Below are positions 48,384-57,354 of a stretch of DNA of 64,000 bases, piece after piece (position 1 is the stretch's first letter; every line of letters starts with the position of its first letter). A model generated the notes under the pieces. The model was not told the origin of the DNA and made no database searches. It saw only the letters and a program-made list of their open reading frames with translations. Source of the stretch: an uncultured Eubacteriales bacterium (lineage in GTDB: Bacteria; Acidobacteriota; Aminicenantia; Aminicenantales; Saccharicenantaceae); contig CAZPEP010000044.1 in assembly GCA_964585685.1 (NCBI GenBank), positions 5,458-69,457 of the forward strand, written 5' to 3'. The translations under genes and the position numbers were made by a program.

Positions 48384-49139
48384 TCAGGCCCCGGGGTCGC
48401 GGCGGTCATGGATCTTGAGTTGGCGCACACCGCGGGCGAAGGAAAATTCGGGAACGGGCCCCGTGACCACCGACCCGGCTCCGACGACGCTGCTCCGGCC
48501 GACGGTGACGCCGTCGAGGACGAGGACGCCCGCCCCGAGCCAAACGTCGTCGTCGATCCGGATCCCGTTCTTCGAGAGCGACGGCTGGAACATGACGGGC
48601 TTCGCGAGGTCCGCAAAACTGTGGTTGCCGCCGGCCACGAGGTAGCAATTTCCGGCCAGGATGCAGTATTTCCCGAGGCGCACCTCGGTCTCCGAGAGGA
48701 TCGTGCAGTTGGCAGAGACGTTGCAGTAATCCCCCAAGTATATGGACCCTTCCTTGCAACTCAGGATGGCGTTCCGGCCGATGTAGGCGTTCTCCCCGAT
48801 GACGATGCCCTCGTTCGCCGAGCCCTTGGCGTCGAGGACCGCGCGGTCGTCGACGAATGTCCCAGCGCCGACACTGATCTTGTGGGGATGGCGGATAGTG
48901 ATCCCCCTGCCGAAGACGCACCCTTTCCCGACCGACTTGAAGAGGCACGGATAGAAGACCTTCCGGAGGAAATAGCCGAAGGCGCCCGGGGCGTCGGACA
49001 CGCACGACGTGACGAACTCATACTTGAGGAGGCTCCAGATTCCCTTCCGGCCAGGGAAGATCTCCATGTATTTAGCGGTCAGGGACCGGTCCCCTGCCAG
49101 GAGCTCCTTATGGATGCTGCCGCGGAATTCTTCGTTCAC
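48384..49139 (-). CDS. Hexapeptide-repeat (left-handed beta-helix) acetyltransferase, WcaF-like
   Basis: Repeated [LIV]-G-x-x-x-x hexapeptides (IGENAYIGRNAILS ...). Encoded antisense to the surrounding plus-strand GT operon. Confidence 0.8.
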   Translation of the reverse strand: MNEEFRGSIHKELLAGDRSLTAKYMEIFPGRKGIWSLLKYEFVTSCVSDAPGAFGYFLRKVFYPCLFKSVGKGCVFGRGITIRHPHKISVGAGTFVDDRAVLDAKGSANEGIVIGENAYIGRNAILSCKEGSIYLGDYCNVSANCTILSETEVRLGKYCILAGNCYLVAGGNHSFADLAKPVMFQPSLSKNGIRIDDDVWLGAGVLVLDGVTVGRSSVVGAGSVVTGPVPEFSFARGVRQLKIHDRRDPGA

Positions 49140-49191
49140 GCTCCACCTCTGTTCGTGATCCCGGCATCATTATAACACGGGGCCGAGCCGA

Positions 49192-52025: not shown

Positions 52026-53003
52026 ATGACGAAGCTCGAGTACTACCGGAGGCTGTGGGCCATCTTCCGGGCCTACAGGAAGAGGGAAACGATCCTCCCC
52101 TATCTCCCCATCCGGCTCTGGATCGAACCGACGAGTTTCTGCAACCTCAAGTGCGTCATGTGCCCGAACAAGGACCTTGACCGGAGGGACAAGGGCTATA
52201 TGCCGCTCGAGCTCTTCCGGAAGATCGTCGACGAGGCCGCCGGGTTCGTCCACGAGGCCAACCTCATCCACCGAGGCGAATCCCTCCTTCACCCGGATTT
52301 CTTCGAGATGGTCCGGGCCGCGAGCGCGGCGGGGATCGTGACCAAGCTCCACACGAACGCCACACTCCTTGACGCAGACAAGGCCCATCGGCTTATCGAA
52401 GCGGGGCTCCATCAGCTGACCTTCTCCTTCGACGGCTACGACAAGGCCACCTACGAGCGCATCCGGGTCAACGGCACGTTCGAGAAGACCATCGAGAACA
52501 TCCGCAGCTTCCACCGGGTGCGGAAAGAGCTCGGGGCGAAGAGGCCGCGCACGATCCTGGAGCTCATCGATTTCCCCGATATCTACCGGAACGTCGGCCG
52601 GCAGGAAAAGCGGGCATTCCTCGAAAGATTCAAGGAATTCCCGCCGGACAGGATCCGGATCAAGGACATGCATAACTGGGCGGGCGATATCGGCGGACCG
52701 GGAAAGGGCCGGACGTACGCACCGTGCACGTTCCCCTGGGCGTCCCTCATCGTCTTCTGGGACGGCCGGGTCCTCCCGTGCACCCAGGATTTTTTCGGGG
52801 ACCTCGCGGTCGGCGACGCCGGCAAGTCGTCCTTGGCCGACATTTGGAACGGCGAGCGCATGGTCGAGATCCGAAAAAGGGCCGCCGAAGGGGATATCAA
52901 GGACCTCGCCCCGTGCTCGGCCTGCGACCGGCCCTGGCGGGAAACGTTCCTCGGGGTGCCCAGGGAATACATCTGGAAGCTCCTCCTGCGCCGGATGCCC
53001 TGA
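52026..53003 (+). CDS. Radical SAM / SPASM-domain protein
   Basis: Canonical CNLKCVMCP (CX3CX2C). C-terminal auxiliary-cluster cysteines (CTFPW ... LPCTQD ... APCSACDRP). Confidence 0.8.
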   Translation: MTKLEYYRRLWAIFRAYRKRETILPYLPIRLWIEPTSFCNLKCVMCPNKDLDRRDKGYMPLELFRKIVDEAAGFVHEANLIHRGESLLHPDFFEMVRAASAAGIVTKLHTNATLLDADKAHRLIEAGLHQLTFSFDGYDKATYERIRVNGTFEKTIENIRSFHRVRKELGAKRPRTILELIDFPDIYRNVGRQEKRAFLERFKEFPPDRIRIKDMHNWAGDIGGPGKGRTYAPCTFPWASLIVFWDGRVLPCTQDFFGDLAVGDAGKSSLADIWNGERMVEIRKRAAEGDIKDLAPCSACDRPWRETFLGVPREYIWKLLLRRMP

Positions 53004-53039
53004 TCCGGCCCTCGCCAAATTGACACCCCTTTCGCGGCC

Positions 53040-54989
53040 GTGATATATTCGGTCCGGAAAATGAAGGTTTCGAACCTCGCCTCGGTGTTCCTGGTCCTTT
53101 CGTCGAGCCTTATCCCGGCCTATCCGAGCGACAGGGCATGGTTCGCCATAAGCAGGCCAACCTCATCGCTCCCCCGCCTCAAGGAGGACCGGGCCGGAGC
53201 CCTGCGCGCCCTTTGGCTCGAAGGCGGGGAAGGCGGGAGCTCGATCGTACTCGGACGCGTCGGCGGTGACTCCGTCGAGAGGGACGGCATCGTGGCGGCA
53301 ACGAACGGGACCGCTCTTTCCCCCGATTTCGATTTCGACGCCCTCAACAGGCCCTGGGTCGCCTGGATAGACAATGCCGGGGAAACGCCCCGGGTCTGCG
53401 TCCGGGAGCCCGTCACGAACCGGACATGGAGGATCAGCCCTCCGTCCCTCCTCTCCGCCTCCAGGGTTAAGGTCCTGGCGGGAGGCCCGTCGGAGGTTTG
53501 GGTCTTCTGGACGGGGCACGACCTCGGCCGGGACGAAACGTTCTTCCGCCGCTTCAACGGAGCGGCGTGGTCGCCAACCGCGCGGCTCCACGCGGACAGC
53601 GCTTCTCCCCGGATCCTGATGGATGCGGTGTTGAGCCCGGACGGGCGCCCATGGGTCGTCTGGTCCCGTTATGACGGGGAGGATTACGAGGTCTACGGCT
53701 CCCGGTGGGAAGGGGCCGGATGGTCAGGCGAGGAAACGCTCACGGACGACACGGGTTCCGACGCCTGGCCCGGCATCGTTTGCCTCCGAGGCTCTCTCCC
53801 TGCCGTCGTCTGGGCCAACGTCCACGGACGGGCGAACTCCCTGCGCGCCCGAGTATTCGCCGCAGGCTCATGGGGGCCGACGCTCGAACTCCTCGCCACG
53901 GGAGAAGAGATCGCCGAACCCCGCGTCTCGACCCGCGAAGGAAGGCTCGTCATCGCCTGGAGGTCCGACGGGGAGATCCGCTCGATGACCCTGTCCTATG
54001 ACCAGCTGAGGACGCGGAGAAACCCCGCCCCGGAGGCGGGCGACCCTGCCCTCGCGGAGGTCGGGCGGGACGAGAACACGTACACGGCGTTCGGCGACGA
54101 GATCACGTACGGCTGGATCGACGGCGGCCCCGCCGTTGAGCTCGGCTACGTTCCGAGGCTCGAAACCCGCCTTACGGAGCGTTTCGGCTTTTCTGCGGTC
54201 GCCAACGAGGGTGTCCCCGGCGAGACCACGGTCAACGGTTTGGGCCGGATGAACGACGTCCTCGCGAGCAACCCTGGCCGCTACCTCCTTCTGATGGAGG
54301 GGACCAACGACGTCGTCACGCCGGACCTTTCGCTTGACGCGAGCGCCTTCAACCTCGAGCAGATGGTCCTGAAGTGCGTCGACGCCGGCGTCCTTCCCGT
54401 CCTCTCGACCATCATTCCGAGGAACGACTCCTATTGGAGCGACGCGCTCTTCCGGAAACGGATCGCCGGCCTCAACGACGAGGTCGCCCGGATCGCCCTG
54501 AACCTAAAACTCCCGTTCGTCGACATGTTCAACACCTTCCTGGATTTCCCCGAGGCCGACGGGGGCTGGCCCTCTCTGCTTTCCGACTACGCCCACCCCA
54601 ACGAGCGGGGATACGAGGTCATCGCCCGAACCTGGGCCGAGGCGATAGGGAGGATCCCTTTCCCCCCTTCCCCGATCACGGTCCGCCGTTCGACGGAGCG
54701 GTCCCTCCTCGCCAACCGGAAGGTCAATTACCTGACCTGGCGCCACAGCCAGAAGATCCGAAACCCGTTCCTGTTCCGAAGCTACAGGATCTTCAAGAAG
54801 GACCTGGCGGAGCCCATAGCTGAATACCGACTGATCGCCGTCCTCCCTTACTCGCCGTTCCACAACCCGCAGAAGTACAACGACCTCGATATCCTCGAGA
54901 CCCACCGCTACCGCTACGCCGTCTCCCTAGTCGCCGTCGACGGCATCGAGGGCCCCCTGTCCGACCCCGCGGACGAATTCGAACTGTGA
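53040..54989 (+). CDS. Secreted multidomain protein: W-rich tandem repeats / SGNH-fold hydrolase domain with GDE in place of GDS / C-terminal Fn3-like domain
   Basis: Signal peptide. Five spaced [VW]xW motifs. SGNH blocks AFGDEITYG (block I, Glu354 at 54099..54101), MEGTNDV (block III), DYAHPNERG (block V). Confidence 0.55.
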   Translation: MIYSVRKMKVSNLASVFLVLSSSLIPAYPSDRAWFAISRPTSSLPRLKEDRAGALRALWLEGGEGGSSIVLGRVGGDSVERDGIVAATNGTALSPDFDFDALNRPWVAWIDNAGETPRVCVREPVTNRTWRISPPSLLSASRVKVLAGGPSEVWVFWTGHDLGRDETFFRRFNGAAWSPTARLHADSASPRILMDAVLSPDGRPWVVWSRYDGEDYEVYGSRWEGAGWSGEETLTDDTGSDAWPGIVCLRGSLPAVVWANVHGRANSLRARVFAAGSWGPTLELLATGEEIAEPRVSTREGRLVIAWRSDGEIRSMTLSYDQLRTRRNPAPEAGDPALAEVGRDENTYTAFGDEITYGWIDGGPAVELGYVPRLETRLTERFGFSAVANEGVPGETTVNGLGRMNDVLASNPGRYLLLMEGTNDVVTPDLSLDASAFNLEQMVLKCVDAGVLPVLSTIIPRNDSYWSDALFRKRIAGLNDEVARIALNLKLPFVDMFNTFLDFPEADGGWPSLLSDYAHPNERGYEVIARTWAEAIGRIPFPPSPITVRRSTERSLLANRKVNYLTWRHSQKIRNPFLFRSYRIFKKDLAEPIAEYRLIAVLPYSPFHNPQKYNDLDILETHRYRYAVSLVAVDGIEGPLSDPADEFEL

Positions 54990-55002
54990 TATAATCCGGT
55001 CC

Positions 55003-57354
55003 ATGAAACGTTCCCAGGCGAAGAGGAACGGCACGTCGTCGCGCCCGGAAAAGCGCAAGCCGGGCTTGGCCGTCGAGATCGTCGCCGTCCTTATGATCTT
55101 CGTCGGCATCTTCGCTCTCCTCAGTCTGGCTAGCTACAATCACCGCGACCCGTCTTGGGCCAATTCCCTGGAGGCGGGGCACGGCGTGCACAACTACGCC
55201 GGCCGGGCGGGAGCCCATTTCGCCGAAGCCCTGCTCCAGTTCCTCGGACTCATGGCCTTTTTCATCCCCTTCGCCTTCGGGTTCGTCGGGATCAAGGCCA
55301 TTCTCCCCGACGGCCGGTCCCGGCTCGTCGCCCGGACGGTCGGAGTCGTGCTCCTGCTCCTCATCCTCTGCCCCCTGCTCTTCCTCCTTTTCGGGAGCTT
55401 CCCGTGGGGGAAGGCCGAGATCCGGGCGGGAGGGATCCTGGGGGACCTTCTGTCTTCAGCCCTCGTCGGCTACCTGAATCCCACCGGCTCGCTTATTCTG
55501 CTGGCCGCCGCACTCGTCCTCTTTCTCCTGTTCTCCACGCGCTGGTCGCTCGCCCGGACGGCGCGGCTCTCCCGCAAGGCATTCGATTCGGCGTTCCAGA
55601 ACGTCACGATCAAGGTCACCCGTTACCAGAAGACCAAAGAACGGGAGAAGCGACGGGAAAAGGTTGCCAAGAAGTGGGCCGCCGCGGCCGTAACACCCGA
55701 GGAAAAGCCGGACGCCGAGGGAACCGACCGGAAGGAAGCCCGGCAGCTGGAAAAGGAACGGGAGAAAGAGCGGAAACGCCGGGAAAAGGAGGCGAAAAAG
55801 AAGAAGGAGAGGGCTCCCGCCGGCCCGGCCCCCGCCGAGAACCTGCTTTTTCCCGACCTCGGCAAGAAGGGCGATTATAACTTCCCCCCGTTCAGCCTCC
55901 TCGAACCGGGCAAGCCCTCGGAGAAGATCGACAAGAACGAGCTCTACGAGAAGAAGCGGCGGATCGAGGATAAGCTCAAGGAGTTTGACGTGGCCGGCGA
56001 GGTTCGCGAGTACCACCCCGGCCCGGTTATCACGACCTACGAGCTGTTCCCCGACCCCGGCATCAAGGTCTCCCGGGTGGCCAGCCTCACCGAGGACCTG
56101 TCCCTCGCCCTCGAGGCCGAGTCGGTCCGCATCCAGAGGATCCCGGGCAAATCCTCTCTCGGCGTCGAGATCCCCAACAACAAGCGCGAGGTCATCAAGC
56201 TCCGGGACATCATCCAGTCGGAGAAGTTCCTGAATTCGCAATCGAAGCTGACGATCGCCCTGGGCAAGAACGTCCACGGCGAGGTCTACATCACCGACCT
56301 GGCCATCATGCCCCATCTCCTGATCGCCGGGGCCACAGGGTCGGGAAAGAGCGTCGCCCTCAACGCGATCATCGCCAGCATCCTTTACAAAGCAACGCCG
56401 GACGAGGTCAAGCTCCTCCTCATCGATCCCAAGCGGCTCGAGTTCTCGCTCTACGAGGGCATCCCCCACCTTCTGGCGCCGGTCATCAACGATCCGAAGA
56501 AAGCGGGCTTCATCCTCTTCGACGCCGTCCGGAAGATGGAGGAGAGGCTGCGTCTCCTCGGCCAGATGAAGGTCCGGGACATCACCCAGTTCAACAAGAC
56601 CGTCGAGCAGACGCTCCAGGAAAAGAAGGGGAAGCTGACCGAGGAGGAGAAGAAGATCCTCAAGCCCCTCCCCTACATCGTCATCATCATCGACGAGCTG
56701 GCCGAGCTGATGATGGTCAGCGCCCAGGAGGTCGAGAGCAGCATCACCCGCCTGGCCCAGCTGGCCCGGGCCGTCGGCATCCACCTCGTCATGGCCACCC
56801 AGCGGCCCTCGATCGACGTCATCACCGGGACGATCAAGAACAACTTTGGCTGCCGCATCGCCTTCCGCGTCCCGTCCAAGATCGACTCCCGGATTATTCT
56901 CGACGGGGGCGGCGCCGACAAGCTGCTCGGCCTCGGCGACATGCTCTTCCTGCCGCCGAACTTCCCGCGCCTGATGAGGCTCCACTGCGCCTATATCTCT
57001 ATTCCCGAGGTCAAGAGGCTCGTCAAGTTCGTCAAGGAGCAGGGCACGCCCGAATACGACGAGCGCATCGTCGAAGCCGTCAAGGGCGACATCGACCAGC
57101 TCTGGGAGGAGTTCGGGGAAAAGGACGAACTCTACGACAAGGCCCTCGAGCTCGTGCTCCTCACGGGCCAGGCCTCGGCCTCGTACCTCCAGCGACGCCT
57201 GAAGCTTGGCTACGCCCGCGCGGCGCGGATCATCGACCAGATGGAGAACGACGGGGTCATCGGCCATTCCGAGGGCAGCAAAGCCCGGGAGATCCTCGTC
57301 GACGCCAAGTCCTACCTAAAGGACAATGTGCGTCGCCAGCCCCGCAACGAATGA
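55003..57354 (+). CDS. ftsK: DNA translocase FtsK
   Basis: N-terminal TM domain. Pro/Lys/Glu-rich linker. Motor domain with Walker A GATGSGKS. C-terminal gamma (winged-helix) domain. Confidence 0.9.
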   Translation: MKRSQAKRNGTSSRPEKRKPGLAVEIVAVLMIFVGIFALLSLASYNHRDPSWANSLEAGHGVHNYAGRAGAHFAEALLQFLGLMAFFIPFAFGFVGIKAILPDGRSRLVARTVGVVLLLLILCPLLFLLFGSFPWGKAEIRAGGILGDLLSSALVGYLNPTGSLILLAAALVLFLLFSTRWSLARTARLSRKAFDSAFQNVTIKVTRYQKTKEREKRREKVAKKWAAAAVTPEEKPDAEGTDRKEARQLEKEREKERKRREKEAKKKKERAPAGPAPAENLLFPDLGKKGDYNFPPFSLLEPGKPSEKIDKNELYEKKRRIEDKLKEFDVAGEVREYHPGPVITTYELFPDPGIKVSRVASLTEDLSLALEAESVRIQRIPGKSSLGVEIPNNKREVIKLRDIIQSEKFLNSQSKLTIALGKNVHGEVYITDLAIMPHLLIAGATGSGKSVALNAIIASILYKATPDEVKLLLIDPKRLEFSLYEGIPHLLAPVINDPKKAGFILFDAVRKMEERLRLLGQMKVRDITQFNKTVEQTLQEKKGKLTEEEKKILKPLPYIVIIIDELAELMMVSAQEVESSITRLAQLARAVGIHLVMATQRPSIDVITGTIKNNFGCRIAFRVPSKIDSRIILDGGGADKLLGLGDMLFLPPNFPRLMRLHCAYISIPEVKRLVKFVKEQGTPEYDERIVEAVKGDIDQLWEEFGEKDELYDKALELVLLTGQASASYLQRRLKLGYARAARIIDQMENDGVIGHSEGSKAREILVDAKSYLKDNVRRQPRNE

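Follow-up and report, generated by a model that had tools for sequence, protein, structure and literature searches.

The stretch of DNA considered here (the window) comprises 64,000 nucleotides of contig CAZPEP010000044.1, from the genome of an uncultured Eubacteriales bacterium that GTDB places in the Aminicenantia (Acidobacteriota). One of its genes encodes a presumably secreted three-domain protein, the central domain of which has the fold and most of the active site of an SGNH/GDSL hydrolase, and carries glutamate at the position of the nucleophilic serine.

Domain architecture and active site

Residue numbers used here follow the longest open reading frame (ORF), which is intact and encodes 649 residues (Table 1). 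An AlphaFold2 model built from a 92-sequence alignment (predicted local distance difference test, pLDDT, 89.3; predicted template modelling score, pTM, 0.89) falls into four parts: a leader (residues 1-41), a propeller (~45-318), the SGNH domain (344-536) and a beta-sandwich (547-632). The leader is disordered in the model (pLDDT <50), and it is from this hydrophobic N-terminus, read by eye, that the protein is presumed to be secreted. The original prediction had described the part ahead of the SGNH domain as a W-rich five-repeat region. The tryptophan motif (xxWVxW) does recur along the strands, but the count of five gives way to the six blades of a beta-propeller in the model. Foldseek matched this propeller to a pseudaminidase (2w38, E=2.8e-10) and to TolB (4r40, E=7.8e-10), with further matches to sialidases, including 8t1y from P. 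gingivalis, and to Dfer_1899. The fold resembles the sialidases and pseudaminidase on the one hand and TolB on the other equally, and the similarity is structural, with low template modelling (TM) scores of 0.4-0.6 on the target; by sequence there were zero Pfam or PDB matches, and the Pfam BNR/sialidase models found no match in the query. The domain downstream of the SGNH domain, earlier called Fn3-like, is indeed a beta-sandwich in the model, but the name has weak backing from sequence, where all matches were sub-threshold: the 'Fn3-like protein' 3mpc (E=0.0065, with the family profile), the Fn3 domain of DSCAML1 (1va9, E=0.043), and PF00041 in one of 17 members at E=0.018, below the usual thresholds.

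The SGNH domain itself is matched by PF13472 (Lipase_GDSL_2) over residues 350-527 and the whole length of the model (positions 1-178 of 178; E=6.5e-26; score 92.4 bits, cut-off 32.9), and also by PF00657 (E=3.2e-9). It is predicted with pLDDT >90 to adopt the flavodoxin-like alpha/beta/alpha SGNH fold, and Foldseek superposes it on 1yzf with a TM of 0.85 and a root-mean-square deviation of 2.5 A over 193 columns. The ORF contains the motifs NTYTAFGDEITYGW (AFGDEITYG), NEGVPGETT, LLMEGTNDV and LSDYAHPNERGY, and phmmer against the PDB aligned fGDEITyGw with fGDSITaGy of 1yzf, an acylhydrolase from E. faecalis. At block I the DNA reads TTC GGC GAC GAG ATC ACG TAC GGC. The Pfam profile, the phmmer pairwise alignment and the MAFFT family alignments agree that Glu354 stands on the serine column, as had been proposed from the GDE motif, and no alternative register yields a serine, which rules out an alignment shift as the source of the motif. 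The accompanying claim, that the GxND and DxxH blocks are kept, also stands, with Asn423, Asp516 and His519 intact; in the family alignment His519 is invariant and Asp516 is kept in at least 90% of sequences. Gly394 of the PGET motif is presumably the equivalent of Gly44 of E. coli TAP (SGDT). The domain therefore has the profile, the fold and blocks II, III and V of the SGNH/GDSL superfamily, and lacks the nucleophilic serine of block I.

Table 1. Positions in the window of the gene, its domains and active-site residues, and of neighbouring features
Feature	Position	Strand	Remarks
Longest ORF	53040..54989	+	GTG start
Propeller-SGNH-Fn3-like gene	53061..54989	+	Probable start ATG 53061, 642 aa
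N-terminal hydrophobic leader (MKVSNLASVFLVLSSSLIPAYPS)	53061..53130	+	Presumed signal peptide or membrane anchor, read from sequence
Six-bladed beta-propeller, residues ~45-318	53172..53993	+	24 beta-strands, pLDDT >85 (model)
SGNH/GDSL-fold domain, residues ~344-540	54070..54660	+	PF13472, 1yzf fold match
Glu354 codon GAG	54099..54101	+	Nucleophile Ser position of block I (phmmer, MAFFT)
Gly394, block II oxyanion-hole Gly (PGET)	54219..54221	+	Retained in family alignment
Asn423, block III oxyanion-hole Asn (GTND)	54306..54308	+	Invariant in 92 sequences
Block V DxxH, Asp516-Tyr-Ala-His519	54585..54596	+	Retained
C-terminal beta-sandwich, Fn3-like, residues 541-649	54660..54986	+	Seven strands in model
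Promoter-like site: TTGACA, 18 nt spacer, TG-TATATT	53020..53049	+	Near-consensus sigma-70-type, 11/12 positions
Radical SAM/SPASM protein, 325 aa	52026..53003	+	No NCBIfam equivalog
Hexapeptide-repeat acyltransferase	48384..49139	-	Hexapep E=5e-14
ORF overlapping the acyltransferase	48408..49175	+	No family match

An artefact, in which GAG would have arisen by a mistake in sequencing or assembly, or the gene would be a decaying pseudogene, has a negligible chance of being the explanation, and we regard it as ruled out. The codon is GAG in the window and in nine other independent assemblies, glutamate is found in 24 protein clusters originating from JGI, ENA, NCBI and Logan, and three base changes are required to turn AGC into GAG. 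Moreover, the ORF is intact and its ratio of nonsynonymous to synonymous substitution rates (dN/dS) is ~0.2.

In its fold, in profile matches with E down to 1e-24 and in having Gly, Asn, Asp and His in register, the domain is like PF13472-type SGNH hydrolases, from which it differs in the glutamate of block I and in being set between a propeller and an Fn3-like domain. Among solved structures the nearest are the E. faecalis lipase/acylhydrolase 1yzf and three GDSL-like proteins from Bacteroides (4iyj, 4hf7 and 4ppy), all of them uncharacterised, so that they give no hint of a substrate. An acyl-serine intermediate is chemically impossible without the serine, and in the bacterial SGNH lipase SrL the Ser10Ala variant has its activity abolished (PMC10779480). 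The domain is best described as SGNH-fold and should not be annotated as an esterase.

Residue 354 across the family

Among 5.8 billion proteins searched, 133 relatives were found, nearly all of which share the propeller-SGNH-Fn3 architecture, and those with a named source come from Aminicenantes or Acidobacteriota metagenome-assembled genomes (MAGs). Scanning the GTDB species genomes gave 485 related stretches, with nearly all titled loci again from Aminicenantes, and the family is specific to this group. Block I states were taken from a 121-sequence MAFFT alignment. Glutamate occupies position 354 in all 24 of the closest protein clusters, which are 63-94% identical to the query (the E clade), and aspartate does so in four sequences (P0032, P0034, P0037 and P0039; the D clade). 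In a further, mixed clade of 14 sequences (P0023-P0031, P0033, P0036, P0038, P0042 and P0043, with loci L005, L006, L035 and L087-L089) the residue is Gly in six, Ser in four, Asp in three and Asn in one. Serine is present in P0040, in P0041 and in 76 of 76 more distant members. In neighbour-joining trees the D and E clades are sisters, and the mixed clade, together with P0040 and P0041, is sister to both. Serine, otherwise universal in the family, is the ancestral state. Two smaller variations were seen in and near the catalytic motifs. The DYAH of the window is private to it at Tyr517 (54588..54590), beside the catalytic Asp, all other E-clade sequences reading DPAH, and Asn before the nucleophile (GNS for GDS) is tolerated in the Ser-bearing P0056, P0061, P0072 and P0109 and at L009, L029, L039, L059 and L078.

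An exhaustive HMMER search with the SGNH domain alone, made against 1.84 billion representatives of 50%-identity clusters, added 141 new representatives. Since serine is present in 134 of the 134 that cover block I, the loss of serine is confirmed, in the sequences sampled, as confined to one lineage.

Serine is encoded by AGC (55) or AGT (14) at 69 of 69 Ser-bearing GTDB loci, and by AGC both at L087-L089 of the mixed clade and in P0041 (L083). Asparagine is AAC (L006), glycine GGC (L035) and aspartate GAC (L005 and L081), and glutamate is GAG in the window and at L001-L004, L085, L086 and L090-L092. AGC, GGC, AAC and GAC are the four purine-purine-C codons, interlinked by single transitions, and GAC is one transversion away from GAG. 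The three changes that separate AGC from GAG pass through intermediates every one of which is present in living relatives.

Gene order and the start of the gene

Upstream of the gene lie glycosyltransferases (GT4, GT2 and GT9), an epimerase, the hexapeptide acyltransferase on the minus strand, KsgA/RsmA and the radical SAM/SPASM gene, and downstream of it are FtsK (13 nt past the stop), an HD-domain protein, PSP1, HolB and UvrA. The gene had been placed directly after a radical SAM/SPASM gene at the edge of a glycan locus, and both parts of that description are correct. The order KsgA, radical SAM/SPASM, propeller-SGNH-Fn3 gene, FtsK and HD is identical around the Ser form (L083), the Asp form (L081) and the Glu form (the window, L001 and L090), and the Ser, Asp and Asn loci sampled in the mixed clade (L088, L005 and L006) share KsgA, radical SAM/SPASM, the gene and FtsK. 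Given this shared order, the Ser, Asp and Glu forms are orthologs, and the substitution therefore took place within one gene.

We also considered whether the Glu form could be a divergent paralog beside an active copy, and this was not supported. The synteny indicates orthology, and no second family copy was found in the window, nor for the Ser-less genomes among the best 80 GTDB loci, their whole genomes being unscanned. Several Aminicenantes genomes do contain two Ser-bearing paralogs each (L027/L064, L030/L068, L072/L075 and L037/L045). A further candidate was functional coupling to the radical SAM/SPASM protein, in the manner of anSME-like hydrolase maturation, for which no evidence was found. 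The protein lacks an equivalog; models for tungsten-cofactor and metalloenzyme maturases match it best, in partial matches that score far below the cut-off. Of 80 Aminicenantes loci, 22 have an ortholog of it no more than ~6 kb from the propeller-SGNH-Fn3 gene, a partial association within a housekeeping block, and the link is one of conserved synteny among housekeeping genes.

The acyltransferase is a real gene, overlapped on the plus strand by the ORF without a family match. That this enzyme of the adjacent glycan locus could make an acylated glycan suited to an SGNH esterase is pure speculation. The tblastn matches to GT9, GT2, KsgA, radical SAM, SGNH or FtsK fall into adjacent pieces at L002, L003 and L004, three long-read MAGs of Microflora Danica. 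This points to frameshifts, probably assembly errors, and the protein calls from these MAGs need care.

The translation of the gene probably begins at ATG 53061, because most of its closest homologs, which begin MKVS, do not exceed 642 aa, the commonest length among them, and because GTG 53040 falls inside the promoter-like site. With this start, Glu354 would be renumbered Glu347. The promoter-like site lies in the 37-nt gap between the radical SAM/SPASM and SGNH genes and overlaps the GTG; it is unique within 52900..55100, where shuffled sequences lead one to expect 0.1, and is a match to consensus only. Its presence suggests that transcription of the SGNH gene is driven from a promoter of its own and that ATG 53061 is the start codon.

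Constraint on the domain and its likely role

Pairwise Nei-Gojobori estimates for the SGNH domain gave dN/dS of 0.17-0.21 for clean E-clade pairs (the window, L086 and L001), 0.16-0.23 among the Asp, Asn and Gly forms of the mixed clade, and 0.13-0.29 for Ser-bearing pairs with dS of 0.2-0.7. The Ser-less values are within the Ser-bearing range, and in every clade the SGNH domain is better conserved than the propeller; it is therefore not decaying. It lacks an essential catalytic residue that its Ser-bearing homologs keep, and its coding sequence is under purifying selection, two features expected of a pseudoenzyme.

We compared the 44 columns that are at least 95% conserved in Ser-bearing members with the same columns in the Ser-less clades. 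Substantial alteration is limited to 354, 355, 422, 395 and 500, and all of these but 500 are in or beside blocks I, II and III. Among strictly conserved columns, 354 alone has switched in the E clade. The other fixed differences of that clade are conservative (P143V, N237D, M528I and Y585F), and a compensating Ser, Thr or Cys elsewhere was rejected on this ground. Ile355 (54102..54104) becomes Thr, Asn or Ser in the D and E clades, and Thr422 (54303..54305), the x of GxND, varies among Thr, Ala, Ser and Asn within the E clade only, being invariant in all other clades; the mixed clade shows Glu to Asp at 395 and Phe to Tyr at 500. Judged from the alignment, 355 and 422 appear to be second-shell positions at which constraint was released only where a carboxylate replaced serine. 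Unchanged in the Ser-less clades are Gly352, Thr356, Gly391, Glu420, Gly421, Asn423, Asp424, Asp516, His519 and Pro520.

The behaviour of position 354 itself differs between the clades. In the mixed clade parsimony counts 5 changes over a tree length of 0.84, and the column ranks 13th of 629 by variability, at ~6 times the rate of an average site. Proteins that are 92-95% identical differ there (P0025 has Asp and P0033 Ser; P0024 has Ser and P0027 Gly). By contrast, there are 0 changes over 0.73 in the D clade and 0 over 1.82 in the E clade. On these counts, 354 is free to change or toggles in the mixed clade, whereas the D and E clades taken together have a carboxylate fixed there. The toggling could be neutral drift after relaxation, or could reflect on/off selection on esterase activity.

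Taken together, these observations lead us cautiously to favour a pseudo-esterase, a reading that we consider somewhat probable: within a secreted envelope protein, the SGNH domain would have been retained as a module that binds a ligand or has a structural part. The ancestor would have been an active Ser-His-Asp esterase domain within a secreted Aminicenantes propeller-SGNH-Fn3 protein, the nucleophile of which became dispensable in the lineage of the window. Single-base steps led from AGC (Ser) to GGC or AAC (Gly or Asn), on to GAC (Asp) and finally to GAG (Glu). With the serine hydroxyl gone no acyl-enzyme could form and canonical esterase turnover would be lost, whilst the domain is kept under unchanged purifying selection with its oxyanion hole (Gly394 and Asn423) and its Asp516-His519 pair intact. 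Its present role is most likely non-catalytic: it would bind the former acyl or acetylated ligand, or would keep the three domains of the protein together at the cell envelope. The carboxylate of Glu354 probably forms a pair with His519, now orphaned, or occupies the oxyanion hole, which would account for its being kept once acquired. A retained oxyanion hole with His and Asp is also what we infer that a substrate-trap-like binder would keep, and the relaxed positions beside the catalytic blocks fit a release from catalytic geometry. The original prediction had left a pseudo-esterase, a binding module and a non-canonical mechanism side by side; the first two are favoured here by the tolerance of Gly and Asn at 354 and by the relaxed neighbours of the catalytic blocks, the third less so.

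Several observations weigh against the pseudo-esterase. Asp516, His519, Asn423 and Gly394 are invariant in all of the ~45 Ser-less sequences, which a purely structural role would not need, and no ligand is known for any member of the family. Across the D and E clades the carboxylate is kept over a tree length of 2.67 with a single Asp-to-Glu step, and the mixed-clade rate would predict ~11 changes for the E clade, where 0 were seen (P(0) ~2e-5). The carboxylate itself is thus probably selected in these two clades, which would also fit a catalytic role. The constancy of glutamate may in part be inheritance through shared descent, given that its codon is GAG in 10 of 10 cases with zero synonymous variation.

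In a further proposal the SGNH domain is purely a scaffold that binds nothing, a folded spacer orienting the propeller and the Fn3-like domain, with function residing in the propeller. The freedom of residue 354 to vary within the mixed clade would agree with this, as would the conservation of the propeller and Fn3-like domain in all members and the pTM of 0.89, which suggests a fixed arrangement of domains. We nevertheless think a pure scaffold distinctly unlikely. His519, Asp516 and Asn423 are active-site residues at the surface, without obvious structural need, and they are invariant at ~50% overall identity; a mere spacer would also sit uneasily with an SGNH domain that is more conserved than the propeller in every clade.

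The persistence of the carboxylate raises the alternative of non-canonical catalysis, in which Glu354, or Asp in the sister clade, would act as a nucleophile through an acyl-anhydride or as a general base for water. Its partners would be His519 and Asp516 with the intact oxyanion hole, and the domain would still act as a hydrolase or transferase, perhaps on a different substrate. Carboxylate nucleophiles with a histidine partner are found in haloalkane dehalogenases and epoxide hydrolases, which have another fold, that of the alpha/beta-hydrolases, and provide a precedent. The proposal further draws on the invariance of the remaining catalytic and oxyanion residues in the Ser-less sequences, on the unchanged purifying selection and on the contrast between zero losses of the carboxylate in the D and E clades and the frequent changes of the mixed clade. 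Set against this, Gly and Asn cannot act as nucleophiles, and they occur in close orthologs under the same selection that are incapable of such chemistry. It is precisely in the D and E clades that constraint is relaxed at 355, beside the nucleophile, and at 422, beside the oxyanion Asn, and a glutamate side chain, two carbons longer than that of serine, would misplace its oxygen relative to Ser O-gamma. Full-text searches of the literature and a 2022 review of SGNH enzymes yielded no SGNH enzyme with a carboxylate nucleophile. We therefore hold non-canonical catalysis to be unlikely, albeit worth keeping in mind. The more particular case in which the D and E clades put their carboxylate to catalytic use, in a Glu/Asp-His-Asp arrangement with the oxyanion hole that would hydrolyse or transfer esters by an acyl-anhydride or by Glu-activated water, seems to us quite improbable. 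If true, it would be the first such mechanism in the SGNH fold, and the mixed clade would be an evolutionary bridge between two chemistries.

For the pseudo-esterase there are parallels in other systems. Neuroligins and gliotactin have the esterase fold of the alpha/beta-hydrolases, have lost the nucleophilic serine and are kept as extracellular binding modules; these cholinesterase-like adhesion molecules differ from the window protein in fold and kingdom, and bind proteins. Closer in family is At1g54030 of Arabidopsis (MVP1/GOLD36/ERMO3), a plant GDSL pseudoenzyme that has no lipase activity and is credited with a new, non-catalytic function in the cell (PMC4757993). Like it, the window protein is a retained GDSL-family member, presumably without activity. 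The plant proteins are eukaryotic and of different architecture, and, unlike them, the case described here keeps all catalytic residues except the nucleophile and comes with a stepwise codon path and a polymorphic stage. In the account of Montanier et al. 2009 that is given in PMC9487903, the SGNH active site of a CE2 enzyme (CtCE2) binds cellulose non-catalytically. As there described, this is a precedent for an SGNH cleft serving as a carbohydrate-binding site; CE2 keeps its serine and is still an esterase, and its relationship to the present domain is taken here at the level of the superfamily.

In a literature of which our coverage was incomplete, we came across no bacterial SGNH protein that naturally lacks the serine or has Glu or Asp in its place, and no account of this Aminicenantes family; natural Ser-less bacterial SGNH proteins are not discussed in the 2022 review. 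The bacterial variant is new, but the phenomenon of pseudoenzymes is already known; dead enzymes are common, and the finding opens no long-standing question. Its value, if the pseudo-esterase is the right reading, would be in an unusually well-resolved record of the passage from enzyme to pseudoenzyme, with the ancestral codon, the single-step intermediates and the end state all at one syntenic locus. The Ser, Gly, Asn, Asp and Glu orthologs, being otherwise near-identical, would make a simple experimental system for an SGNH site without its nucleophile. For the Aminicenantes proteins themselves, annotation as 'lysophospholipase L1-like esterase' is probably wrong with respect to activity, and within this one family a clade that toggles its nucleophile on and off would stand beside another that is locked in a carboxylate.

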